Shown here one piece after another: positions 612-45,659 of a stretch of DNA of 54,824 nucleotides. The stretch's first letter is position 1. Each line of letters begins with the position of its first letter. The position numbers were made by a program, and so were the translations under genes. Location: IMG/VR virus record IMGVR_UViG_3300025671_000082, positions 1-54,824 of that record; one strand, given 5' to 3'. The notes under the pieces are model-generated. The model searched no databases. It had not been told where the DNA came from and saw nothing but the letters and a program-made list of their open reading frames with translations. Source of the stretch: a virus (Duplodnaviria > Caudoviricetes).

Positions 612-1049
612 TTACTTCTTCCAATGTGAGAGACAAACAAGCTCTACTTCTTCAGGGTTAGGGAGTTTGATTACATCCTCCCAATACTCTTCTGCTACTA
701 CTACAACAGGGTAATAGCCTTCTTCAATAAACCCTACGTGGTGTACTTGTTCATACCGGTGTAGAGAGTAAGGAAGAGAGCCAATACTCCGAGTAAGGTT
801 AGCAGACTTCTGTTCAACTGGGTCTGTTACAACAAACTCTTTAGTCATGTCTTTCCAGAGGTAACGGATAAGTTCTTCTGTAAAGTCATCTACCCCATAG
901 ATAGCTACGATAGAAAGATCTTTGTAGTCTCGCTTGAACTGTTCTTTAGCTGTGTCTGGGCGAGGTTTCAACCGGATCTTCTTTGGTTTACTGTCAGTAG
1001 AACCCTTTGGACGCCCCGGTTTACGTTTAGTTTCGTTCTGTTCAGTCAT
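612..1049 (-). CDS. Hypothetical protein with basic AT-hook-like N-terminus (RKPGRPKG)
   Basis: ORF coupled to its neighbours; GRP motif seen. Confidence 0.6.
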   Translation of the reverse strand: MTEQNETKRKPGRPKGSTDSKPKKIRLKPRPDTAKEQFKRDYKDLSIVAIYGVDDFTEELIRYLWKDMTKEFVVTDPVEQKSANLTRSIGSLPYSLHRYEQVHHVGFIEEGYYPVVVVAEEYWEDVIKLPNPEEVELVCLSHWKK

Positions 1050-1272
1050 CCAGCTCTTCCTTCAGTCCTGTATAACCACCGGGGATAAGTTTAAGAACTT
1101 GAGGTACGGTTTTAACTTTCATGTCATCTACCAAAAAGTGTTTCCATACAGAGTCTAAGATACAATCCCCAGAGGTGATGTCTACATAAACATACTCTAG
1201 TTCTTTTGAGTCCAACAGTTCTTTTGCCTTATCACAATAAGGACAGTTCTGCCGACCAATAACGAGATACAT
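1042..1272 (-). CDS. Glutaredoxin
   Basis: CPYC active site, TVPQV and GGY motifs; near nrdJ. Confidence 0.9.
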   Translation of the reverse strand: MYLVIGRQNCPYCDKAKELLDSKELEYVYVDITSGDCILDSVWKHFLVDDMKVKTVPQVLKLIPGGYTGLKEELDD

Positions 1273-4602: not shown

Positions 4603-6576
4603 TTATGTCAAGTCTACAATTTCACAACTATCCCCAGAGCAGGCCATAGTCTGCATACCAGAGGTGTTGTCTTCCTGTTCATACTCCGAAAGTTTAGACC
4701 AGTCAATAGACTTAGGCATAACCTCAAGCAAGTCCTTGTAGGCGGGGGTTACAAGTTTTTCTGTGTAATCATCATACACCCCTTCTGTCTCCCCTGTCTC
4801 CTGATAAGGTGCCTGCTGGTATGTACCACCGTCATACGGCAGAAACGATACACCAGACATCTCATCAAAGTGCTCATAGACGAAAGCACCTACTTCCATC
4901 CACTCGTCATCTTTTACGGACACAGTGATAGAAGGCTTGTGCTCACACCAGTGACGCTGATAGATCAACCAAGTCTTCAGTTGCTCCATAGCAGACACAT
5001 CATTACGAACCACTGCATTATCAGGTGACTTCACAGGGAAGCTGAACACTGTGGTAGTATCTGGCTTCATAACACAAGGCTCATTAGGGATACCTTGGTC
5101 CTTCATGAACTGTGTCAAAGGGTCTTTATTGTCTCCTCTTACTGTCCGAATATAATAGGGAGAATGACGGGTATGAATACCGCTGGCACTGTCCACAAGC
5201 TGGCTAACAGTACCAGAAGGCTTAACGCAAGTGATAGCCGCAGAAACAGGGATATCAAGACGATCAGACCACTCAGCATTAGTAGCGACAGCAATACCTC
5301 GAAGATGCTCAAGGGTCTTCTCCAATCCTTCGTTTGCTGAAGTCATCAGCGGGTTGTCCATAATACCTGTCAGGCTGACACCCAACAAGCGTTCTTCCTC
5401 AGTATTACGTTGCCATACCTTACGCAGATACGGGAAGTGTGTGTATGTACTTTGGATAGTACCAAGGATGGTAGCAAGGCGAACCTTACGCTCCAAGTCC
5501 TCAATGGTATCTGTTGCTCGTACAACAACCTCGGTCAAGTTGCAGAACTGATATGGCCGCAGGATAATCTCTGAGCAAGGGTTTGTTCCAAACTCAAAGT
5601 TAGGGTCACGACGTCCATTCTTCTCTGCCTGCTTCTTGCTGGCCTGACGGTTGAACACACCACGTTCACCTGACTTACTCTCTACAAGGGCAAGCCACTC
5701 ACGCATGAAGGTCTCCATGTCAGGCTTCTCCGTGTAGCTTACAGAGTTGTTAGCCAAGGCACGTTGTCCTTGGTTTTCCCACCACTGTCCTGACTTAGCA
5801 TGACGCATACGATCATCAGACAAGTTACTAAGGCTAATCATAGCAGAGCGGCGTACACCACCTACAACTACAACTTCACCAATCTTACACATGATGTCGT
5901 GGCACTCAATTGAGGACAACTTACGACCAGTAGCACCTTTGAACTTCTCTACAGTAAACTGGAACAGATCAACCAGAGGAGCAGGGCCAGACGCACGACC
6001 CCCGAAGGTTTTGAGTTTAGCGCCAGCAGGGCGAATCTTGGACACGTCCCACTTAGGGATTTCACCAGCCCACAGAAGAGACAGCAGTTGCCGGTAAGCC
6101 TTAGTCCAACCTTCCTTGCTGTCCTTAACAACAATAGTCGTGTCGCTCATAAACAGCAGGTCAGGAATTTCAGGCAACTTGCTGATGAACTGACGCTCAA
6201 CAGAGAACCCTACACCAGTACCACACAACAAGATGAACATAGCCTCATCAAAGGACTTGGGGTCATCTACTGGCAAGTACGAACAGTTGTACATACAGGT
6301 GTTGTCACGGTCTGCTGCCTTGCCCGCTGTCATCAAGGACCGCATAGAGGGCATAACCTCAAGGTCAAGGATGGCAGTTTTGAGTTCGTATGATACTCCT
6401 TGCATATCACTGTCTCTGCCATTCAGAGGCTTTAGCTTGTTATTTACTACATTGTCGATATACCGATCAACAGTCTCAGCGAAGGTCTCACGTCGCCCCT
6501 TGTCTTCAAGCCACTTGGCATAACGACTAAGCGCAATGAAAGATTGATAGTCAGTTGGTAGAATGTTGTTTGTCAT
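4603..6576 (-). CDS. nrdJ: Class II (B12-dependent) ribonucleotide reductase
   Basis: YNCS, GGVRRSA, TNPCSE and VKPSGTVS motifs; C-terminal CxxxxC; no small-subunit gene nearby. Confidence 0.9.
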   Translation of the reverse strand: MTNNILPTDYQSFIALSRYAKWLEDKGRRETFAETVDRYIDNVVNNKLKPLNGRDSDMQGVSYELKTAILDLEVMPSMRSLMTAGKAADRDNTCMYNCSYLPVDDPKSFDEAMFILLCGTGVGFSVERQFISKLPEIPDLLFMSDTTIVVKDSKEGWTKAYRQLLSLLWAGEIPKWDVSKIRPAGAKLKTFGGRASGPAPLVDLFQFTVEKFKGATGRKLSSIECHDIMCKIGEVVVVGGVRRSAMISLSNLSDDRMRHAKSGQWWENQGQRALANNSVSYTEKPDMETFMREWLALVESKSGERGVFNRQASKKQAEKNGRRDPNFEFGTNPCSEIILRPYQFCNLTEVVVRATDTIEDLERKVRLATILGTIQSTYTHFPYLRKVWQRNTEEERLLGVSLTGIMDNPLMTSANEGLEKTLEHLRGIAVATNAEWSDRLDIPVSAAITCVKPSGTVSQLVDSASGIHTRHSPYYIRTVRGDNKDPLTQFMKDQGIPNEPCVMKPDTTTVFSFPVKSPDNAVVRNDVSAMEQLKTWLIYQRHWCEHKPSITVSVKDDEWMEVGAFVYEHFDEMSGVSFLPYDGGTYQQAPYQETGETEGVYDDYTEKLVTPAYKDLLEVMPKSIDWSKLSEYEQEDNTSGMQTMACSGDSCEIVDLT

Positions 6577-18037: not shown

Positions 18038-18226
18038 TTATACGATAAACCAACTACGGTTTAGGTCTTCAGTGTAGAGTTCTGCGTAGAACTCAAATTC
18101 AGAGTCGCCGGGATTAACCAGCACCTCAAGATACTCTTCCTCTGGACCAATAGCTTGGACATAGCAGGGTGCTCTTTCTCCTTCAAACTCTACCATGATT
18201 GTGCTTCCGATCTTAGGCAAAAGCAT
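18038..18226 (-). CDS. Small hypothetical protein
   Basis: ORF track. Confidence 0.55.
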   Translation of the reverse strand: MLLPKIGSTIMVEFEGERAPCYVQAIGPEEEYLEVLVNPGDSEFEFYAELYTEDLNRSWFIV

Positions 18227-20402
18227 AGTCAGACTCCTTTACAGCGTTTAAGTCTAGATTACCCTTTTCAGGGATTAGGTGGATAGCATCCATCTGCACC
18301 AAGATATGATACAAAGGATCCATCTCGTACAACTCTACAAACTTTTGACGGACGTGATTAAACATGTGTCCCATGTTACCAGCATGGCAACCAAAGGAGT
18401 CATGTACAACAGTCACTTCGTAGTCTGCATCATGTACAACCATAGTCAAATGCACAGCATCTAAACTATGAACAATATTTGGGGAAGCGCCTGTCTTTTG
18501 TTTAGTCTTTTTAAGTGTCGCTTCTTTCCATACTTGTATGTTAAGCTTAAGTATGTCATCCCCATAATAAAGCTGAACACGCTTCTTTTCAGGGTCTCTG
18601 TAAGAGTGTACAAAAGGAAACCCTGTTACAATTTGCTTATAGGTAATAGGCTTGTCTTTTTCATTCTCTTGTACAGCAAGCTGCTCAAACATACTAAGCA
18701 TTTTAGCGGGGCCGGGAAGCTTTTCATAGCACAAGGAATGGACAACACGACCTAACTTGTAGCCCCAAGAGTCATGCATGTCCCGGTGGTATTCCGATAG
18801 GTCACGAGTATCGTCAATGATTTGTTGACCCATACCTCGCTCAGTACCTCCGTAAGCTAGTGTCATAACATTTCGTTTGAGTGTTTTACGCCAGACCTTA
18901 CGGTCAGTAATCTTAGACCAATAGATAGGCATTGAGTCTTGAATATACTGATAGTTGTGGTTTTTAAACTTCCCAAACTTTTGCCAAGCAAGCCTGTTCT
19001 TTTCTGTCTTAGGTTGATACTTCTGCAAGTCTTCTAAGGTGCTTTGCCACTCTTCAAAGAACTTATCAAACTTGTCTTTGTCTGATTTCTTTACTGTTCC
19101 AAGCAACTCCTTTATTTTTGCTATTGTGTGGTCTGCAATAAACATATAAACATCACCGGGTAGGTCTTGAGGAACAAGATTAACCAAGGGAGCAATCTCT
19201 TCGTCTTTAGACATTGCTACTAGGTGTTGTACTCCGTTGTTTGACCCATCAATGTAAATAGGTAAGCATGAGGGGAAATCTTCTGTTGGCAAGCCATCAC
19301 CATGCCAGTTTGATAGCATAGAGAACTCGTAACAAGCCGCAAGAAAACATAACGGTTTATCAGCATCCATCCAAGCGTTATTACCAACAGGATCATCAAC
19401 ATAAAGCAAGATGTCGTCCATGTTGTCTTGAACCCACTGGACACGATCATCAAGAGAGACCTTATCGTTACCCCACATATTAGCCGTATGAACAGAAAGC
19501 CAGTATAACCCCTCTTCCCCTAGGGGTACTGGTGTGTCTAACAGCAGCAAACCTTTTGCGTTATCTGAAGACTGCTCATGAAGAAATGCTGTATTAGGGT
19601 AGATACGACCTCGGAAATCAACGTTGTAAAGGTGGTAGAAAGTGTTGTCTAAGTTTCTTTCTGCCAGAGCTTCAATGGCGTTGAGTTCAATTAGCAAAGA
19701 AGCTTTCTTTTCTTTGTCAATTTCTTTTGAATACTTGAAGGGTGTTTTTTTTAGGTTGCGTGTTTTCTTGAACACATCAAATACGAAAGAGTTAATACGC
19801 CAGCCGGTTTGTCCCAGCTTGTTTAACGTATCGATAAGATAAGACATGTCATTATTCTTTACCTGTTTAATCGCATTCTCGTGAGCGTGTTTGATTAGAC
19901 TAACCCCAGTTTGCTTGTGTAGAAACTTATTGTACTCCCAAGGTTCAGGAGCAGAGATAAGAGGAAACAAATCAACGTTCCCTTTGTCTACTAGATGCAT
20001 CATTTCTTGAATAGCATCCATGTTGCGGACTTGAATGTAGTAAGTAGGGTGTTTGTCGCGTTTCCCCTTTGAATTCTTCCTGTGTTCTCCTTTGTAAGAT
20101 AATATGTTCGTTTCGAAGTAAGAGATCAATATAAACCAACCGATGTGGCAAGCAGTAACAGCGTCTTCTGTCAGTTTTTCCCGACGCATAACTGCTGAAC
20201 CCATGCCTTTAACAAGGTTCGATAGGGTTGATTGTCTCTCAATTGCTTGCAGAACATGACCGTAAGTCATTTCTATTAAGTAAGTCGGATCTAGTTCTGC
20301 AACTTGATAAGCTTTGTTTCTTTTGTCAACAGAGCCAGTTTTACTTATCATTGATTGTTGTCTGAAGTTTAAGTCTTCAGCAAGTAGCTCTATAACATTC
20401 AT
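18213..20402 (-). CDS. Stand-alone single-subunit (T7-like) RNA polymerase, about 729 aa (ATG 20402 preferred over GTG 20444)
   Basis: DFRGRIY, motif A DGSNNGVQH, motif B RKTLKRNVMTLAYG, PNIVHSLDA, motif C HDSF; AAGGA SD before 20402. Confidence 0.95.
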   Translation of the reverse strand: MNVIELLAEDLNFRQQSMISKTGSVDKRNKAYQVAELDPTYLIEMTYGHVLQAIERQSTLSNLVKGMGSAVMRREKLTEDAVTACHIGWFILISYFETNILSYKGEHRKNSKGKRDKHPTYYIQVRNMDAIQEMMHLVDKGNVDLFPLISAPEPWEYNKFLHKQTGVSLIKHAHENAIKQVKNNDMSYLIDTLNKLGQTGWRINSFVFDVFKKTRNLKKTPFKYSKEIDKEKKASLLIELNAIEALAERNLDNTFYHLYNVDFRGRIYPNTAFLHEQSSDNAKGLLLLDTPVPLGEEGLYWLSVHTANMWGNDKVSLDDRVQWVQDNMDDILLYVDDPVGNNAWMDADKPLCFLAACYEFSMLSNWHGDGLPTEDFPSCLPIYIDGSNNGVQHLVAMSKDEEIAPLVNLVPQDLPGDVYMFIADHTIAKIKELLGTVKKSDKDKFDKFFEEWQSTLEDLQKYQPKTEKNRLAWQKFGKFKNHNYQYIQDSMPIYWSKITDRKVWRKTLKRNVMTLAYGGTERGMGQQIIDDTRDLSEYHRDMHDSWGYKLGRVVHSLCYEKLPGPAKMLSMFEQLAVQENEKDKPITYKQIVTGFPFVHSYRDPEKKRVQLYYGDDILKLNIQVWKEATLKKTKQKTGASPNIVHSLDAVHLTMVVHDADYEVTVVHDSFGCHAGNMGHMFNHVRQKFVELYEMDPLYHILVQMDAIHLIPEKGNLDLNAVKESDYAFA

Positions 20403-20581
20403 GCAATGGTTATTCCTTTTGTTGTGGACTAGGTGAGTTTTCACTCCACTTTGTTTAGGACTGTATAACCGTATTTTAGTCGTCTAGTTTGCCTGAAACA
20501 CCAAGACACACTACAATTACGAAAAATGCGGTTATCATACTTTAAATTGCTTTCTTAAAAAAAAATTAGTTGATTAAAGGT

Positions 20582-21895: not shown

Positions 21896-24708
21896 AGTTT
21901 TATGGAGTTTTAGTTTTTCTCCATTGGGTCGTGTGTAGGTAGATCAAAGTCGAGTGTATTAAACACTGCATCATCATCTTCAGGAATTAGCCCTAGATCA
22001 ACCGCACCTGATGTTACTGCTAGGAGCGGAGAGTGGTCCCCATAGATTGGATGCTCATAAAATACAAACCCGTATTCCCGGTGTATCTCTGTAGCATTCT
22101 GATCAATTAACCAACGACGATTATGAGAGGTTTTTACCCAGTGATCGAAGTCACAGTCTTTTCCATAAGGGTTCATTTTTCAGTCCCAGAGGTTTGTGAG
22201 GTTTTCAGCAACAAAGTACAAAGCTTCTTTTGCAAGTGCTACTTTGTGGTCTTCAAGTTTGTCTGATATAGTGTATTCAAGAAGGTTACTACCGTGAATA
22301 AGTAGTTCTTCCTGCCATACATGTACATTTGGGTATTCATACGGATAAGAGTTTATGTTCTTTGACCACTCTACCATACGCTCACCAAGCCATTGACAAA
22401 GAGATATGTCGAGATTAACGCAGTCTTTACCAAGTTCTGTTTTGTAGAAGTCCTTCATTATTCAATCCATCCTTTGTTTTTCAAGAGAGTGGGTTGTTCG
22501 CTTATAAGTTCACAAAACGATTCCCAAATTTTTCGTCGATTTCCTTCTGCTAAAGGTAGACCGTAAGGTGCCCCAATTATAGTCAACTTAACTTCTTGCC
22601 GAGGAAAACCGTGCTCTTCTGCGAGGTAGTCGTAGATGTTTTTTACAGGTTCATTCATCTTTGTATTTCTCCTCAATCTTCGCCATTTCCTCGTAGTAAG
22701 CAGTCTTGGCAGTTGCCACAGCCTCTTCATAAACAGGCCAATCAGACTTTATAGTCTCTTTATAAGCAGCCCAAGCAGATGCTTCGATCTCTTTGTAAGC
22801 AGCCAAGGCAGCATCAAGTTCTTCTTCCTTACTGATCATTTTTGTGTTTCCTCTTCCTGTAAAGCTTCTGCTTTGTTTTCTTAGAAGTCACCACCCTAGG
22901 TCTGAACTCAGGTGACTGCCAAAGTTCTTTCGCAAGGTGGTTTCTTGGTTTGATCTTTTTCGCCTTTCCCATGTTTAAACCTCGTAAGTAGGTGGTTAAG
23001 TTTAGCTCTGTATCAATCCACTACTTGTATAACTTCTGCGTTTTCCCACACGCTAAGTTCTTCCTTCAGTTCCTCAACACGGTATGAATAGGGTGGTCCT
23101 ATCTCCAATGCTCTCTCCAAGTAATGACTGCTATACCGTATTCTTTCACGTATTTTCTTCTCCGCCGCCTCTCTAGACCGGAAGATACTGTAGTGGCGAG
23201 GGTTCTCCACAAACGTATCAGAACGGACGTAGCCAAGACCCCCGGACATAATCACCCATACGCTAAGTTGTTCGATCATTGTTTAGCTCCTTCTTGATTA
23301 CTTTTACTGACCCAATCATATCTCCCAGATCGCCAAAGTCGCCTAGTTGCAGGTCGTCACCAAACAGCATCCTATTGAACCAATCGATGCTTTCCTCATC
23401 GTTACCGTGAATAAGATCAGCATCATAAGTCAGATCGATTACTAACCGGATTGTCTTGTCACTCATTTCCTACCTCTTAACTCCAAAGAAGGTGTTTTCT
23501 TCAATCTTCTGCATCAGTCGTCGTCCTTCGTGCCATCAAGGTAGAACCAGTAGTTGCGTTCCAGAAAAGTAGTGTGAAAGCGATAGTTAATTTCCTCTGG
23601 GTCTATATCCCCAAGAACTTCAAACGTCCAACCCTCGCCCAGAGAGAAGTGCCAATCACAGGAACCGTCTGAATAGGGGATGCGCTCACACTCCAGCTTG
23701 AGCAACCCCTCTAACGTAGTTGGTACAGTGACAGGTAGTTCGTTTATCCACATGTCCTCTAGCTTTTGTAGCTTTTCCAAGAAGAGGGGGAGGAGTTCTG
23801 CTTCATCAGCATAGCCAGCCAGCTTCTCCTCCAAGGTTTCTTCTTTCCCTTCTTCTTTAGCAGGGAACGTGAAGATATACACTTCCGTAAGTTCGTTGTT
23901 TGGTCCTTGAGGCCGCTTTGCGAATTGTACCTCCGAAACTCCTGCGTAAGACCCTTCAACCCCCATTCCGTAGGTGGCTTGCAATCCTGCAAAAAGGACT
24001 TCTTTGAGACGCTCTGGAGTAAAGGTGAGATAGAACGGTGGCAGAATTGAGTTGTTCTGTGTCATTTCTGTTAGTTTCCCGATACAAGAGTTATAGCAAC
24101 CATAGTCGCAGTTACAGCTAAAAGGAACAGGAGCCATTCAGCTTTGTTCATAGGTCGTTTAGTCCTTGATGTTCGTTTTTGTAAACCTCGTGGTCGAGTT
24201 CTTCGTAGGCTTTTTCGATTGCCAGCTTGAGTTGCAAAAGCTGATTACGACGTAACACCGTAGTACTATAATTATCGTATTCAGTAACACAAATCTGGAA
24301 AAAGGGTTCACCAGAGGATCGAAACACAGCGATTTTACAACCTTTAGTTTCTATTATTTCTTCGTGGAACACGGGTTCTTTCATTCCTTACTCCTTTGTT
24401 GTTTTAGTAACCACAGGCTTCTATGATTGACTTAGACGCTGAGTCCGCAGCAAAGACAGCCGTATTAGCTTCCTCTTCAGATAGGGTCAATCGGAACAAA
24501 CCTTTATCTGTGAACCACATTACAGCTTCTACTGTGATTGTGTAGTTGATTTGACTCGCCCAGACACGGTACAAGTTATGTTCACCGTCATCGTATAGCG
24601 CTGTGCCATCAGGGAAGCAGAAGATAACGTCAGAGGCGCTAGTAGCGTTGTGCGGTACTGCCGCGAAAAGGTAAGGGTTTTCGTAGCGTTCAGGTACTCG
24701 ATTAATGT

Positions 24709-38438: not shown

Positions 38439-41400
38439 TTATGGCCCAATTCCATAGAAATCAAATCCCGGTTTTATCGGTTCAATGATTTCTTGATAAG
38501 TAAGTGCGTCAGGTCCAGACTGTAGCAGCCCATCTCGTTTAGCACGTTCTAAGTATTTTCGGTAAGTCTTTCTAGACAAACCCTGACGTCTCATTTCTTT
38601 GAGAGTTTTGTCAATAGTGCCTGACTTCAGTGCATCTGCATACAACTGGCGTAAAGCAAATTTCGCAGGAACTGCGTCACCTAAGTTTGTAAAGAACGCG
38701 TCGTGGATAGTACCCGTATCGATATTGTTCTCTCTTCCCCAAAGGTGAAATCTTCGGACAAGCACAGCGTCATTACTGTGGTTACCGTTAACACCAAGAC
38801 CAATAGCAGCGTCCTGTATTGATTGCTCAGACAGAAGTTTACCGTCTTTTGCAGGTGCTTCATATATATTGAACACTTTCTGCCCAGTGACAGGATCAGT
38901 GAAATCAATCCTTACTTGTTCCTTTGTACGATAGCGTTGCATCATTGTTTTACCATCGAAAGTTACCCAAGGAATATCTGTTGTCTGTGCTTCACGAGCA
39001 AAATCTTTTGCAATGTCTTTCCAGAACTTGATAAACTTACCAGTAACAGGAACCTCTGTTTCAAGATGACCAGACATAATTGATGAAATCTTATCGAATA
39101 GCCGAGTACCTACAAGGTCTCCGGTTTCATCTCTAAGCTTAAACAAAAATGTATGCATCTCTTCAGAGTTTTTAATTCCATCTCTGAACTCACCTTTAGC
39201 GGTTTCATACAGAGACTCTGTGATAGGTTTGCCTGACTTAGAGGCTAGTACCACATCTTTCTTAATGTCGCGTAATTCGTCAATACGTGTCCAATTTTTT
39301 CTGTCCATTTCAAAGCTAATCTTAGCATCAATAGCCTTCTTAAACTTTTCAACTTCTTTAGATGAGATAGAGACTTTACCTTTTTTAGCAAGCACCTTTG
39401 CAAAAGCGTCCGCAATATTTTTAGCTTTGGTAGCCGATCCGGCCCCATAGAATGTTACCCAAATTATTCAGCAAGGTAGTCACTCCTTGCCCGTGTAAAA
39501 GGCTCTACCGGAAGAAAACCAACGTTTAATTGTTCTATGAGAAACGTTATGAGCCTTAGCAGCATTGCGTAAAGAATGATATGTTTTGCCATCTACCGAT
39601 ACTTTTTTTGCGCGATGATGAGATTTGGACATTCTTTTCGACTGTGCCTTTTTAGCTTCTTCGGACCAAACGCCCTTAGCAGGTTGTTTACCTTTTGATC
39701 CAATTCTACGGTAGTAAGAACGTACCGCTTCTGTTTGTTTTCTCATTTGGTCTTCTGTGTTTTTCCGTCCTGACAAATGTTCTTTTGAAAATTTAGAATA
39801 TTCTTCTCTCAACCTTTTGAATTGAGTCGAACCTATTAGCTTATCTTTACCACAGTTCATAAATCTGAACGCATAGGTCATTTCAAAGTTATTATGTATT
39901 TTCCAAAGCAAAAAGTGAGCAAGGTAATGTTCTCTTGCTGTCAGGTAAGTGATGTTATCACTCTCATCAGAGCCGCCCATAGATTTAGGAATAATGTGAT
40001 GACCTTCTGTGTAAATATCAGAGGGTTTCACATTACGTCCGTATTTTCGTATGAGTTCATCGTAATGGTATTGGTAGTTCATTTATTTTCCTTTTTTTTC
40101 ACTGCTATATGTTTCCATATAGTTTAGACTATATCATCACTTGACTTGTTTCAGCTTACCCATAAATACTGCCCAAGCAGGATTAGAGTAATACCTCTTC
40201 CATTGTGTTAAAGTTTTAACAATGAATGGCCTTTCAGCCCATAGTACAAGTGCTCTGCGCTTCCATCTGACATTTAGATGTACTCCCTTCGGATAGTCGT
40301 TGAACGTTCCCCTTGTGGGGCTTCGCTGCTGATTGCCTACGTCATTACACGTTTAGGTTTTCCAGCAATTCACAGAGTTTAAAGAACACAGATTTAAGTT
40401 TATGTTCTGGTTTTTAGCAGCTTTCATTAAGTCAGACCAATCAAGGTCTAATTCAGCAAGTTCAGGTATTGCCAAGAACTCAGGGTCGTTGACAGTGCGT
40501 TTAGCAATTTCGTCGTACAGACGCTGTTTCTTATCGGTTTGAACAACGTTAGAGAGGTTAGCAGCCGCTCTATCTTTTGTGGAAAGAGCAATAATCTGCG
40601 CACCAGAAGAACTAGCGTCGTTTTCAATCATCATCTTGGTCTTGTACTTAGCAAGCTTTCTGATATCTGCTGAATTAAACTGCCGTTTATCTGTTGGCAT
40701 CTTACCATCCATGTGACGGTATATACGAGTGTATTCTAGAGCCAAACGAGATACTTTGCCGATGTGTTCATCATCAAGACCCATTTGATGGGTTTTCTCA
40801 ATGAACTTACGAACCTGACCTGCTCTTTGGGAAGGCTTGTCTAGCATATAGCTACCAAGCTCTAGTAAGTCATCTTCTACAGCTTTAAATGCTTTTAACC
40901 TACCTTGCACTGTAAGAACATCTAGTGGGTTCCCGACAGCGGCACCTATTTGAGTCATAAGCTCTTCTACTGCGTCTGGTGTCATAGAAACACCTTTTGC
41001 CGTATTTAAGAACGGACGCACGGTTTCACCCTTAGTTGGAGTTAAAAGACCACGGTGATAAACACGACCTCGGAAGTCAATAGAGGCGTCTACCGAGAAG
41101 GCTTGATTACGCTGTCTATGGAATTTAGCTGTTGCAAGAACACCTCTTCCATCATTACCACGAGCATCGATAAACAGTTTCTTCCACTCGTTCTTTTCAA
41201 GCAACGCAGCATCACCTGATCGTTTAGCTTTAAAGTAGATTACTTCTTCGGCAAAGTCAAAGAAATCAGGGTCTACTTGGTACTTCACTGAGTTAGCGTG
41301 ATTAAGCATTTTAGCTATATCACGATCAATCTGCTTTGGATCATAGTCAGCAAAGACGTTTTCAGATACGACAGGTTGAGAGGTTTTACGATTACGAGCA

Positions 41401-43952
41401 TCAAAGTAAACTTTTTCTCCCGCCTTAGCGTAAAGCTGATCACGTCTATGGTATACCCCAAACCGCCTTGCAGCACGAGTCTTAGCATTAGCAATTTGTA
41501 GTTGTCTTAAATCACCATCAACAATTTGAATTTGTTTAAACACAGAAACACCGCGTAAAGACTTATCGCGAGAAGCTAAACCTGTAGCCAAGTCAATAGG
41601 AGAGCTTGTGCCACTATCACGAAAAACATCAGTACGGATTATCCCTTGGCGCTCAAGATTTGCAAGTATTCTGGACCCATCCTTATGAAACTCTTTTAGT
41701 GTTTTAGATCTAAAAGGATTTAAACTACCAAGCTCATCATCAAACAGCTGACCAATCTTAATAGCAAGCTGATCGTAGTCTGCACCGTCTGCAGCGGCAA
41801 TCATTTCCATAGACTTAGACAAGGCTTTAATGGTTTTGTCGTTTATGGTTTTAATAGCCTTTTCTCGGTAAAAATTAGTAACCCTTTCTCGGTAAAAATT
41901 AAATAAAAAATCTAGAGCAATCGCGTCAAAATCTGCGATGCTGGGTACGTCAGAAGCAGAAAGTTTTTCTGAAAGTGTTTCTATAATAGATTCAAGGGTT
42001 GTTTCATCCAAAAACTCACCGTCTAAAATTTTACGGGTATTACCTCGGAGTTTAGAAATTTGTTGAGTGATCCAAGAGTCGCTTGGAAGTTTTTCTTTGT
42101 TTAGCTTTTTCCATAGTTTATAACCGGGAAGTTTTTCAAGAAGAAACTTCTTAGCATTAAACTTCGGATAACGCCTAATGATAGGCTGTGTGTAAGCAGC
42201 GATAGGGGCCTTGCGATTGTAGAAGGCTCTACGAGCTAAGTTAGCACCTTGTTTTTCAGGCCAACGAGCAATGTAGCGGTTATCTTTGATTTGAGAGTCA
42301 ACTAACTTAGAGATTGTAAACTTTTTACCGAGAATGTCAACCTCTGGATCGTCTTTTAAACGACTGTTAAGCGTACCAAACATCCTACCTCGCTCAACAG
42401 CGCGGTTAAACAGTGTAGTACCTTGGTCCTGAACAGCATTCAAAGTAAACTTACGGAATACAGAAACAGGGGTCCCCCAGACTTCTCCGGTTTTGTTAGC
42501 CCGAGAAAAAGTTTGACGAAGAACATCAACAACAACTGATCGTTGGTTTACAGAAAGAGACCTGTCTAAACTATTTACAAAATCTCGTATATAGTCTTGT
42601 TGTTTAGTTGTTAGAGCATACTGTTCAAAAGAAAGCTTCTCAAGCCTCTCCGCTAGAAACTCTGGATCAGGAGGTTGTAAATGCTTGTAAGGCCCATCCC
42701 CATAGTCTGTCCCATCGGCGCTAAAGGCAGCACCCTTGCGATCGTTTTTGAAATAGCGCCTTGAACCTTGTTTTTGAGACAAAGAGTTTCCCTTGTAATC
42801 GACAAGGGACAAAGCTTGTGCGTTTTCACCAGCATCATTTTTAAAGAAATCCTTTAGTGCTTCGGTATTAGCCTTAGAACTCATAAGTTCATCTGGGGTG
42901 TTAAACCTAAGCGTACCTGTGTATTCATTGGTTGTAGTAGGGCGTCTAACTGTTCTATTAGCACGACGCATTAGTCCTCGAATACTCAAAGCCTTACCTT
43001 CAGGAGAAACAAACTCTTCAGCCTTCAGTCGTCCTTTTTGAAACAACGAGGCTTGACGCTCACCACCTAGTAGTTTAGTTTGAACTTCAGTTGTTTGACG
43101 CCTTAGCCATTCTCCATAGGTCTTAATCTTTGAAGGTTGACCATCCAGGTCTGCGGAATGAACTTTGTTTAGTTTCCTTGGTTTAATTTTATCTGAGGTC
43201 ACGCCTTCCAGAGCTTCTTTAGACTTTACTACCGGAACAAGAGTTGATCGACAGTTAAAGTGAAGCGGCGGTTGGAAACGGTTATCATCAACATCATAAA
43301 CCTTACCATTGTGATGAGTACAGATAGGGCTGGTACGGCTATCAAGAATAGCAGTAAACATGTAGCCTTCAAACAATTCTTTGTTTTGTTGTACAACATC
43401 ATTCAAAGCTTGAGTTTGAGCCGCTGTAATAGAAGTTCTTGTTAGTGTCTTGGCTTGATGCTCTGTAATCTTAGTTGTTTTCAGAACATCATTAATAATT
43501 TCGTTGTTAGCTTTCCCCGCAGCAAGTCCAGCTTTAACTTTAGATTGTATGCGGACTAGTTCTCCAGAAGAGATATTGCTAACGTTTCTAGTAATAGATT
43601 TAGCACCCTTAATGTTTGGGCCAGTAATCTCTTTCACAAGATCAGCAGTCTTAGGTTTTTGTGTACGATAAAACCCTTTCACTTCCGCGTGAAGGTTATT
43701 ATAGTGAAAACTCTTATTTGCCTTTGTAAATTGAGTAACAGAGCCTACAATAGACTTGTTAATTTCTTTAGCAAAACGGTTAACTTCAGGTTTCACATCG
43801 CTCCGAATGTTCTTCTTTAAAACTTCTGCTAAGTTTTTACGATGTGTTCTTAGTATTTCACGTTGTGCTTTTTGTTGACCATTCTCGTAGAGTCGAACAT
43901 CAGTGCTGTGATCTACGATCCTGTCAAAAATCTTTTCGTTAATTGTAGACAT
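38439..43952 (-). CDS. MuF (SPP1 gp7-like) domain fused to single-subunit RNA polymerase; exons 40402-43952 and 38439-39459; 1523 aa spliced; candidate virion RNAP
   Basis: MuF motifs LDSRTSPIC and PPLHFNCRS; RNAP motifs DFRGRVY, motif A DASSSGAQ, motif B KAAKNQNMVTFYG (restored by splicing), NGNHSNDA, motif C IHDAF. Confidence 0.9.
39460..40401 (-). mobile_element. Group I self-splicing intron, 942 nt
   Basis: 5' exon GAACAU pairs with IGS GUGUUC (U.G at the splice site); P AAUUGCUGGAAA, Q AAUCAGCAG, R GUUCAACGACUA, S GAUGAUAUAGUCUA; P9 GAAA hairpin; terminal G; removal restores frame and motif B. Confidence 0.93.
39480..40082 (-). CDS. Intron-encoded HNH homing endonuclease with NUMOD-like C-terminus
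   Basis: HHIIPKSMGG..DN...LTAREH..AH motif; located after P9. Confidence 0.9.
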   Translation of the reverse strand: MNYQYHYDELIRKYGRNVKPSDIYTEGHHIIPKSMGGSDESDNITYLTAREHYLAHFLLWKIHNNFEMTYAFRFMNCGKDKLIGSTQFKRLREEYSKFSKEHLSGRKNTEDQMRKQTEAVRSYYRRIGSKGKQPAKGVWSEEAKKAQSKRMSKSHHRAKKVSVDGKTYHSLRNAAKAHNVSHRTIKRWFSSGRAFYTGKE

Positions 43953-44012: not shown

Positions 44013-44087
44013 TGGTGCTGAAACTCAGATTTGAACTGAGAACCTACGCTTTACAAGAGCGTTGCTCTGCCGTTGAGCTATTTCAGC
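44013..44087 (-). tRNA. tRNA-Thr(UGU) with encoded CCA
   Basis: Acceptor GCTGAAA/TTTCAGC, D-arm GCTC/GAGC, anticodon stem ACGCT/AGCGT with loop CTTGTAA, T-arm CTCAG-TTCAAAT-CTGAG. Confidence 0.93.
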
Positions 44088-45659
44088 TTATTCTTCCTCT
44101 AATTGAATCTCTTCATCCGGTGTTTTATTTGTTAACGGATCAGTTTGAATCTCTTCAACCGCTTCTTCGTCGTTGTAATCAGCCGGAAGGAAGTCATTGT
44201 ACTTGGCAATATTAATCCAAGTGCTACGAGAGATAATACCACTCTGATACCATTCACTGACAAGGCGCATTGCACCTTCACCGCCAACAATAGGAGAGAA
44301 GTCAGAGGATAGTTGGAAGTTAATGTCATTACCTGTATATTCGGTGCCATACTTCCAATTCAGCATGAAGGCAATAACTTCTTGCATTGTGCTTGAGATT
44401 TTAGCGTTCATGGTCCCAAGTTGAGCAGTTTGAGAAGCATTACGGATTTCAAGAGCAACACCAGAAGCTGCTTGTTCGGGAGAGAGCATACGAATTCCCA
44501 TCTTTGCCATTTCAGAAACAGTAGCTTCAATAGCTCGATCCATGTCACTCAAAGCACTTGTAGGTGTTTCAAGGACAGTAATAGACTCATCTTTACGGAC
44601 ACGTAGCCAAGTACCAAGACCTGCATTCACGAGTTCTTCAAACTCTTCGTCAGTCATGTCAGACTGCACCACAGGGGTATAGGTCGCAGCACCGTATAAC
44701 AGGTGGTTACGGCGAGATACTTTGTTGTACAGAGCTACCTCTCTGTCAATCAGAGGCATAAGTACTGGTTCAATTGGCTCTAGTTGTCCGTTAAGCGGAA
44801 ACGCCGGGATACGATCCAAACGCTGACCAAACTTCATAGGATAAACAGTGTCGTATTTTTGGAAACCACCATCAGCAGAATCTATGTATTCTTGAGTGAT
44901 TACACCATTCAAAGCTTCTACTTCGTGAGAACCATGAGCTTTCTTATAGTAATCAAGTACCAAAAAACCCTGCTCATCAAGATAGTGATCACAAACAGTA
45001 TCAACATAGTCTGGATGCCAAGGGTTGTTTGAATCATACTCTTCCATAATGTAACGAGTAACCATACGGGTAAGAGTCTTAGCGCGAGTAATCGGATGAG
45101 TCTTTACTTGAACATTAATAACGTTTTCAGCCTTAATCAAAACAGGGTAAGGTGAAATTTTCATACGCTCTTCCGGCATCATTGATTCTAGTTCAGCATC
45201 AGGCACAACAGGGTGATCAATGTAAACCCAAGCACGAGAAGTTTGAAGTTCTTCCCAGATAGCAGCATCTAAGAAATTAAACAAGGATGCACCATCAAGG
45301 GTAAAGTCTTTTGTGATCCAATCATAAGCTTGTACTTGCTCAAGCTCTTCAGGTAACTTAAGTTGTGAAGGCTTACGAAGCAAAGCACTAATTAGCACAC
45401 GAGCATACTGTGTTGTAAGCCCCGGTAGCTCTGCTTCTGACTTGTAGAAGTCATACTGGTTTTGAGTCATGCTAGGTGAAAAAGGCAGTAGCAAGTTATT
45501 GTAATCAACCTCTATGAATTCATCATGTGCTTTAGCATGAGCTTCACCTTGAAGCACAGCACGGGCTTTTTTCCACAAAGGCTTAAGAGACATATAAGAA
45601 GCACTAGGTGTTTCTGGTCCTCTTTTAATAGTATTAGCAGCTGTCTTAACGAGCGCCAT
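44088..45659 (-). CDS. Portal protein (DUF4055-like)
   Basis: 523 aa directly upstream of the MuF gene; overall motif pattern and synteny. Confidence 0.8.
   Translation of the reverse strand: MALVKTAANTIKRGPETPSASYMSLKPLWKKARAVLQGEAHAKAHDEFIEVDYNNLLLPFSPSMTQNQYDFYKSEAELPGLTTQYARVLISALLRKPSQLKLPEELEQVQAYDWITKDFTLDGASLFNFLDAAIWEELQTSRAWVYIDHPVVPDAELESMMPEERMKISPYPVLIKAENVINVQVKTHPITRAKTLTRMVTRYIMEEYDSNNPWHPDYVDTVCDHYLDEQGFLVLDYYKKAHGSHEVEALNGVITQEYIDSADGGFQKYDTVYPMKFGQRLDRIPAFPLNGQLEPIEPVLMPLIDREVALYNKVSRRNHLLYGAATYTPVVQSDMTDEEFEELVNAGLGTWLRVRKDESITVLETPTSALSDMDRAIEATVSEMAKMGIRMLSPEQAASGVALEIRNASQTAQLGTMNAKISSTMQEVIAFMLNWKYGTEYTGNDINFQLSSDFSPIVGGEGAMRLVSEWYQSGIISRSTWINIAKYNDFLPADYNDEEAVEEIQTDPLTNKTPDEEIQLEEE

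Follow-up and report, generated by a model that had tools for sequence, protein, structure and literature searches.

The DNA analyzed here, referred to below as the window, is the entire IMG/VR virus record IMGVR_UViG_3300025671_000082, a linear sequence of 54,824 nucleotides that is ~80% complete. On its minus strand, the 942 nucleotides at 39460..40401 are a group I intron (Rfam RF00028, Intron_gpI). The intron splits a methionine codon, AT/G, in a gene that joins a MuF domain to an RNA polymerase (RNAP) of the T7 type. This is a real intron of an ordinary type; it is spliced, is probably mobile, and interrupts an unusual gene whose annotation is poor.

Specifically, we are confident that this is a functional intron of the phage IA type, with the P7.1 and P7.2 helices, probably still able to move, that carries the gene for an HNH endonuclease between P9 and a 3' hairpin. 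Here, the lineage to which it belongs is understood to have been re-targeted within one hot spot of the polymerase gene.

Ribozyme core and ligated exons

The RF00028 model matches 40459..40105 (minus strand) in full (model positions 1-253), with a score of 103.1 bits (E 1.1e-25). The gathering score that serves as its cut-off is 50 bits. An earlier reading of the window, made from the sequence alone, had placed a group I intron at these coordinates and had named a covariance-model search as one way to check it; the match clears the cut-off. The boundaries, 40401 and 39460, are exact. Helices were taken from the minimum-energy fold of 40410..40095, supplemented by scripts and direct reading. 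The elements of the intron, all on the minus strand, are as follows.

40105..40401: ribozyme core (RF00028, fold, alignment with seven related introns)
40383..40408: P1, exon AGAACAU (40408-40402) paired with the internal guide GUGUUCU (40389-40383) (fold and script)
40377-40371 with 40259-40253: P3, CUCUGUG and CGCAGAG (fold)
40367-40362 with 40332-40327: P4 (fold)
40357-40336: P5 (fold)
40353..40355: TAA stop of the exon-1 frame, reached after 16 codons of intron, in the P4/P5 region (list of open reading frames and sequence)
40320-40309: P6 (fold)
40298-40294 with 40131-40127: P7, GACUA and UAGUC (complementarity by direct sequence reading)
40293-40284: P7.1, an extra hairpin between P7 and P3' (fold)
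40280-40264: P7.2, an extra hairpin between P7 and P3' (fold)
40252-40138: extended P8 (fold)
40122-40105: P9 (fold)
40082..39480: open reading frame (ORF) for an HNH homing endonuclease, 200 amino acids, 3' of P9 and preceded by AAGGAAA
39470..39491: 3'-terminal hairpin, GGCAAGG and CCUUGCU (fold, z -2.7)
39460: terminal G (omega-G), with the 3' splice site between 39460 and 39459 (sequence)

Fold and script agree that P1 has seven contiguous pairs, with a U.G pair at the 5' splice site between 40402 and 40401. P7 is a pseudoknot and cannot, of course, appear in a minimum-energy fold; its complementarity is kept in all eight aligned introns (the window and seven related ones). Subgroup IA, the phage type, is defined by the extra helices P7.1 and P7.2 between P7 and P3'. 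Both hairpins are present in the fold here, and the segment is kept in 7/8 aligned alleles, that of EBPR siphovirus 1 being the one that differs. Thus, the helices named in the sequence-only reading (P1, P3, P7, the extra ones leading to P3', and P9), together with the terminal G, were all recovered by fold, script or sequence reading.

The 3' end is organized around the terminal hairpin at 39491-39470, whose loop contains the stop codon of the endonuclease ORF. The hairpin is followed by GAAUAAUUU and then the terminal G, so that the intron ends ten bases on. A hairpin directly upstream of a conserved motif of the U(G/U)AAC type (UCGAAC in the locus designated L113, UGAAU in the window) folds in 9/10 alleles with differing stem sequences, EBPR siphovirus 1 again being the exception. 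A MAFFT alignment of the 3' tails is not structure-aware, and was therefore set aside as a source of pair counts in favor of separate folds. Both of the related introns that lack an ORF keep the 3' hairpin, which places the ORF between P9 and that hairpin.

By established group I chemistry, splicing would proceed by itself in two steps initiated by guanosine, with the 5' site presumably set by P1 and the 3' site by the omega-G at 39460. A script that joins 40402 to 39459 restores the reading frame ..KAAKNQN-M-VTFYGAG... Elsewhere in the window, the target pattern is not found more often than chance would allow.

Relatives without the intron show the same junction. Scanning IMG/VR with exon 2 gave 62 loci, 59 of which cover both sides of the junction. 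In 58 of these 59, exactly one codon lies between the exon-1 and exon-2 matches; L019 alone has a gap, of 873 nucleotides. Continuous AAYATGGTNNNNTTYTAYGG is found in 58 of the 62 loci, the remaining four being three truncated loci and the intron-bearing L019. Likewise, in gp108 of phage DSS3_VP1, the match to exon 1 runs up to 24634 and that to exon 2 begins at 24638, within one gene of 1463 amino acids.

The ligated junction itself was then sought in RNA. Twenty public runs contain the window or part of it, and 11 of them are recorded as RNA. Over 38900..41000, contigs were compared from three metatranscriptomic runs (X3, X10 and X4) and one DNA run (X1). Each of the three RNA runs holds one contig that joins 39459 to 40402, skipping exactly 942 nucleotides, at depths of 25.9, 31.7 and 38.1 (X3, X10 and X4), with 30 matching letters on each side and zero differences. 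The DNA run X1 lacks this joint; there, the region is a single uninterrupted contig at depth 62.9. Thus, the RNA libraries contain the exact ligated junction. The sequence-only reading had predicted the product of amplification across it, ...CAGAACAT joined to GGTAACATTC..., and the contigs of all three RNA runs in effect deliver that product. Contig depth, together with possible DNA carry-over, permits no ratio of spliced to unspliced transcript to be derived, and depths were not used to rank genes.

Several points must be weighed against the view that the intron folds and splices in the cell. The RNA evidence consists of assembled contigs, not raw reads, and the bridging contigs are only 60 nucleotides long. 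The three RNA runs bear different study codes, yet all come from the same year and habitat, and may represent one campaign. The DNA control is one run only, possibly the source of the window itself. Each RNA run also has unspliced contigs at similar depth (31-36), from pre-mRNA or from DNA carry-over. By script, P10 in the window is only 2 base pairs, versus 8 in L019. Last, translation in the exon-1 frame would pass through P1, P3 and P4 ahead of its stop, and could hinder folding.

Some of these points would suit a different origin for the joint: an intronless strain with identical flanks that occurs alongside and contributes DNA or RNA, or an artefact of assembly or template switching. Metatranscriptome libraries can, of course, carry DNA, the bridging contigs are short, the same runs hold unspliced contigs, and many relatives among public viral contigs lack the intron (58/59). 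However, the joint is missing from the DNA run, appears in 3/3 RNA runs at depths near that of the unspliced path, and falls at the exact nucleotide predicted from P1 and the omega-G. Further, the window's exact flanks are found in 0/58 of the intronless alleles examined, which makes an intronless strain an unlikely source. We consider it very improbable that the joint arose in any of these ways.

A more radical view would hold that the gene is truly split. Here, the two polypeptides would assemble as in heterodimeric phage RNAPs, and the insert would be the remnant of a dead intron beside a free-standing HNH gene. Consistent with this, the record for EBPR siphovirus 1 annotates the homologous arrangement as three genes (gp47, gp48, gp49), and the exon-1 frame does stop 16 codons into the insert. 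Yet exon 2 does not open with a start codon (the first in frame is a GTG 21 codons downstream), the break interrupts an invariant block in the middle of a codon, the core of the ribozyme, at 103 bits, is intact, and RNA contigs contain the exact ligated junction. A genuinely split gene thus deserves almost no credence. A spliced intron accounts for the joint, and the sequence-only placement between 39460 and 40401, within a methionine codon, stands on the covariance model, on the 58/59 intronless relatives, and on the RNA joint.

The gene that is interrupted

The spliced product is a protein of about 1523 amino acids, whose C-terminal portion of about 1000 amino acids has the fold of a T7-type single-subunit RNAP. 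Its two exons, both on the minus strand, are these.

40402..43952: first exon of the MuF-RNAP gene (exon 1), 1183 codons and the AT of the split methionine codon, with MuF at amino acids 135-238
38439..39459: exon 2, the G of the methionine codon, 339 codons and a stop, with polymerase motif C (IHDAF)

Exon 1 matches Phage_Mu_F (PF04233) with 65.3 bits against a cut-off of 29.6 (E 1e-17). It also matches PHROG 241 (head morphogenesis, 2.2e-57) and PHROG 414 (RNA polymerase, 6.5e-13), and polymerase motif A lies near its C-terminal end. Exon 2 matches PHROG 414 at 4.1e-9 and is 48% identical to the C-terminus of DSS3_VP1 gp108. The polymerase matches, to Pfam RNA_pol as to PHROG 414, are weak in both exons.

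A profile (A1) built from an alignment of ten intronless homologs finds T7 RNAP as its sole match in the PDB (E 7.6e-5), in three collinear stretches that include motifs A and C. The HMMER profile and hhalign both set NDASSSG opposite FDGSCSG (motif A) and IHDAF opposite IHDSF (motif C), and both motifs are invariant in 10/10 homologs. Against T7 gene 1, hhalign reports Prob 88% and E 3.1e-6. An AlphaFold model was built for the intronless homolog L005, which is 83% identical (pLDDT, the predicted local distance difference test, 68.8). With this model, Foldseek returns T7 RNAP first (1s76_D, E 6e-15, prob 1.00), followed by the human (POLRMT) and yeast mitochondrial enzymes. Given the structural match and the agreement of HMMER and hhalign on motifs A and C, the T7-type fold of the modeled host protein is well supported. 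The sequence-only reading had called the host a MuF-fused polymerase of the T7 family, and both halves of that description hold.

More delicate is the question of where within the polymerase the intron lies. The sequence-only reading placed it in motif B. Between the aligned motifs A and C, the ten homologs have a single invariant K...YG segment, the KAAKNQNMVTFYGAG block that the intron splits, and in the L005 model this block lies within a helix (residues 789-804). Its spacing (K, then M at +4, Y at +8, and G) equals that of K631, M635, Y639 and G640 in T7. Speaking against the assignment, neither hhalign nor MAFFT (the latter with T7 RNAP and the window's second RNAP in the alignment) set KAAKNQNMVTFYG opposite T7 motif B; T7 KRSVMTLAYG was aligned by both programs to other, non-conserved segments. 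Further, a phmmer search of the PDB with the 110-amino-acid motif-B segment gave matches at chance level only. Thus, signature and position make it probable that the split block in the model is motif B (the O-helix), and to that extent the placement stands. The alignments do not carry it to the individual residue, where equivalence to T7 motif B is our inference.

What, then, of the transcript that is not spliced? Its frame is an ORF of 1199 amino acids (40353..43952, minus strand), exactly as the sequence-only reading stated, ended by the TAA within the intron. The same reading went further. It proposed that unspliced mRNA gives a MuF protein lacking motif C, and that how efficiently the intron is spliced could set the proportions of inactive and active polymerase packaged into heads. 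The ORF does keep the MuF domain, which by analogy has a packaging function, and spliced and unspliced forms have similar contig depth in the RNA libraries. However, contig depth gives no such ratio, and DNA carry-over is possible. The intron is absent from 58/59 relatives, including the closest (81-83% identity in exon 2), and related introns at five positions, some with no ORF, have the pattern of a selfish mobile element. Nor is the tail conserved, since the length of read-through varies among alleles: the exon frame stops within 3-8 codons in L019, EBPR and L116, after 6 in L123 and after 11 in L138, while in L094 it runs about 17 codons into the intron, as it does in the window. The regulatory proposal found no support here, and we regard it as quite unlikely.

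The surroundings of the gene are those of a head-gene cluster, in the order portal (PHROG 145), tRNA-Thr, MuF-RNAP gene, scaffold, major head, adaptor. The first two, also on the minus strand, are located as follows.

45659..44088: portal gene (PHROG 145)
44013..44087: tRNA-Thr (UGU), between the portal and MuF-RNAP genes

Joining a MuF domain, which targets capsids, to a polymerase of the T7 fold suggests an enzyme that is injected for early transcription. By analogy, the MuF-RNAP is probably packaged, injected and active in early transcription in these siphophage-like genomes.

The window encodes a second, ordinary T7-like single-subunit RNAP of 743 amino acids (18213..20444, minus strand; PF00940, E 4.9e-78). 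Thus, the phage has two polymerases of the T7 fold, one free-standing and one fused to MuF, a set reminiscent of N4, where a virion polymerase is followed by another that acts later. Four records in the public phage collection have homologs of the MuF-RNAP gene. When the DNA of the whole gene was searched at near identity in 50,697 phage records, just one match was returned, of 45 nucleotides and chance-like.

Related introns, insertion sites and mobility

A 22-letter core motif from P7 to P7.1 was used to scan IMG/VR. It was found in at least 96 stretches, and 80 loci were fetched. Upstream ORFs were compared with Pfam for 65 of these (72 candidates minus seven in the MuF-RNAP gene; eight more loci had no usable upstream ORF). 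The 65 comprise 19 major capsid proteins (15 of them of the SU10_MCP type), five endonucleases, one helicase, one tape-measure-like protein, one RNR-like fragment, and 38 with no family. Capsid genes are therefore the commonest host in that sample, and the number of stretches and variety of upstream genes mark this as a widespread family of phage introns.

MuF-RNAP exons were found in 10 of the 82 loci L066-L147, where L066 and L120 are the same contig and L076, L082 and L116 carry the same intron. Ten distinct alleles of the MuF-RNAP gene carry related introns. RF00028 scores are 101.6 bits in L113, 95.8 in L123, 91.8 in L019, 91.5 in L116, L076 and L082, 88.2 in L094, 67.2 in L138, 58.3 in L066 and 52.7 in L106. 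Insertion sites were read from the sequences, checked by script, and counted in nucleotides from the site in the window.

+0, AT/G: window, the L116 group and the ORF-less L113; guide GUGUUCU
+3, after ATGGT: L019 and EBPR; guide GCCAUGU in L019 (perfect 7-base-pair P1, 8-base-pair P10)
+8, between GCGT and TT: L094; guide GCGCAA
+9 or +10: ORF-less L123; guide GAGG, with a P1 of just 4 base pairs
+16, between TACGGT and GC: L138, L066 and L106; guide GCCGUAG

Within 17 nucleotides, these introns thus occupy five sites, four of them well defined and one less certain, each with a guide matched to its own site. The predicted splices restore QNMV(T/A/S/H)(F/L)YGAG in 9/10 scripted alleles. For L066, whose contig begins 16 nucleotides before the site, no peptide was printed; L106 lacks its 5' end and was left out of the script.

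Not every allele fits equally well, and the weaker ones count against the main reading. The EBPR allele scores 40.5 bits, below the RF00028 cut-off (at the E-value threshold), so that Rfam at its gathering threshold reports nothing in the EBPR locus. The longest contiguous P1 there is 4 base pairs; by eye, a pairing over seven positions with one mismatch is possible. For L123, the short P1 leaves the site uncertain by one nucleotide.

Comparison of the parts gives two different answers as to which introns are close. The window's ribozyme core is 86% identical to that of L116 (at the same site), 84% to those of L019 and L094, and 70% to that of L138 (at +16). For its HNH protein, identity is 66% with L138 and L066, 42% with L019 and L094, 33% with L116 and 27% with EBPR. 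Because these similarities disagree, the parts seem to have different histories. With guides matched at neighboring positions, this suggests that one lineage has been re-targeted repeatedly within a single hot spot, its guides re-matched to new sites and its endonuclease ORFs moved between ribozymes. Candidate routes for a change of site would be reverse splicing into nearby sites ending in U, repair that is imprecise, or the capture, in separate events, of introns without an ORF close to a single cleavage site.

Would the intron in the window still move? Its 200-residue ORF matches PHROG 655, "homing endonuclease", with E 2.9e-39. The En domain of a group II maturase aligns with its HH..N..H stretch (EGHHIIPKSMGGSDESDNITYL..H; E 0.0019), and three other alleles have intact homologs of 66-68% identity. 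Among the 59 related loci that cover both exons, the intron is found in one, which is compatible with mobility, and such patchy occurrence among close relatives suggests a recent gain. In the proposed cycle, the HNH enzyme would nick or cut intronless alleles of co-infecting relatives near a conserved stretch of DNA, and repair would then copy the intron in (homing).

It may be, of course, that the intron splices yet no longer moves, with an HNH protein that is inactive or only a maturase-like helper. Here, the Pfam HNH score is a point against mobility, 20.6 bits being 0.8 below the cut-off of 21.4, and the Pfam matches to the DNA-binding domains NUMOD1 and I-TevI are weak. Against an immobile intron stand the intact ORF that keeps HH..N..H, the strength of the PHROG 655 match, the intact homologs in other alleles, and the patchy distribution in close relatives. 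We hold immobility to be rather unlikely; the sequence of the intron indicates that it is probably still mobile. The HNH endonuclease of the sequence-only reading is thus borne out by PHROG 655, with Pfam just short of its cut-off. For finding relatives, a single-sequence search of viral contigs with the HNH protein gave only two loci, and the core-motif scan was far more productive.

Three features of individual introns and loci may be added. An expansion of P8 of ~120 nucleotides is common to the window (40138..40252, minus strand) and L019 (2771..2880), whose sites differ (+0 and +3); the other six aligned introns are without it. The two ORF-less introns are in L113 (1384..1660, 277 nucleotides, +0) and in L123 (294 nucleotides, minus strand, between exon matches at ~1641 and ~1334, +9/10); an endonuclease would have to be supplied to them in trans, or they would be immobile. 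Last, L138 has at 719..1132 an in-frame insertion of 138 amino acids in its polymerase part, absent from the protein of the window. A second intron was considered for this 414-nucleotide segment of exon 1 and rejected, as the segment is in frame and open and matches no PHROG and no Rfam family. It is an insertion in the protein, and may be an intein or an extra domain.

Known systems and what is new

The classical phage introns of subgroup IA2 with endonuclease ORFs are those of td, nrdB and sunY in T4, of the SPO1 DNA polymerase gene with I-HmuI, and of the DNA polymerase genes of the T7-like phages PhiI and W31. Like the intron in the window, they have the P7.1/P7.2 layout, lie after a U within a conserved catalytic motif of an essential gene, keep the ORF outside the core, and occur sporadically. 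Unlike them, the intron here has a T7-fold RNAP gene as its host, and has its ORF 3' of P9 and before a terminal hairpin.

Introns in phage RNAP genes have precedents. Gp210 of phage PhiPA3 has a group I intron with an HNH endonuclease in a highly conserved catalytic region; the report describes an endonuclease that nicks the intronless allele of a related phage, the targeted homolog in PhiKZ being packaged in the virion (PMC11620839, Birkholz et al. 2024). There, however, the host is the beta-like subunit of the multisubunit RNAP of a jumbo phage, whereas here it is a single-subunit enzyme of the T7 type fused to MuF in a siphophage-like genome. Further, cleavage and competition are shown for PhiPA3, whereas the activity of the endonuclease in the window is predicted. 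Self-splicing introns with homing endonuclease genes are likewise described in the virion RNAP genes of AR9 and PBS1 (PMC12350094). As described, these RNAPs are also multisubunit, and their intron and endonuclease families differ from those of the window.

Another close system is EBPR siphovirus 1 (JF412302), where the same block in the same gene family is split by a homologous intron and HNH ORF (27% identity). The insertion is 3 nucleotides downstream of the site in the window. In that record, gp47 ("head protein"), gp48 ("HNH endonuclease") and gp49 ("hypothetical"), at 5610..6459, are one intron-split MuF-RNAP gene; the record annotates no intron.

Functionally, the host gene may be compared with the virion RNAP of N4, in which a polymerase module of the T7 type, within a large virion protein, is injected to transcribe early genes (PMC5512222). 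According to that polyvalent-protein survey, N4-like vRNAP modules are confined to N4-like phages (PMC5512222). The N4 protein is not fused to MuF. It offers a functional analogy by which packaging of the MuF-RNAP is presumed.

In the literature searched, no intron in the gene of a single-subunit RNAP and no MuF-RNAP fusion was found. Within that literature, the host gene and the cluster of insertion sites are new. The sequence-only reading thought such a host unusual for a phage group I intron, and this is borne out to the extent that the introns in phage RNAP genes found by the search are in multisubunit enzymes only.

One may go further and view the stretch that encodes motif B in MuF-fused virion RNAPs as a battleground for a single intron lineage. 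Here, the guide would have been re-targeted to +0, +3, +8, +9/10 and +16 within 17 nucleotides, HNH cassettes would have been swapped, and the endonuclease would serve as a weapon against co-infecting intronless relatives, as in PhiPA3 gp210. Such a system would be without precedent in the gene of a single-subunit RNAP, and a rare case of site-hopping by an intron in a protein gene. We offer this larger view tentatively, as possible, and rather doubt it in its complete form.

The range of targets of phage group I introns is extended to the single-subunit RNAP family, with direct evidence of splicing from RNA in environmental libraries (contigs). In records of DSS3 phages, members of the gene family bear the label "head morphogenesis" or "minor head protein-like protein", and in EBPR siphovirus 1 the gene is entered as three. 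Recognizing the intron restores one protein. Further, neighboring sites, matched guides and shuffled endonuclease ORFs make up a compact natural data set on how target sites change and homing modules are exchanged.

A whole-gene homolog that has no intron is gp108 of DSS3_VP1 (Naomviridae; NC_055826), annotated "head morphogenesis" and 44-48% identical. Neither "RNA polymerase" nor "MuF" occurs in the main text of the Naomviridae paper, although gp108 may be annotated in its supplements (PMC8323127). The intron described for DSS3_VP1 is in terL instead (PMC8323127). Gene order in DSS3_VP1 is like that in the window: portal, tRNA, gp108, a hypothetical gene in the position of a scaffold, and major head. 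The tRNA there is tRNA-Asn, where the window has tRNA-Thr.

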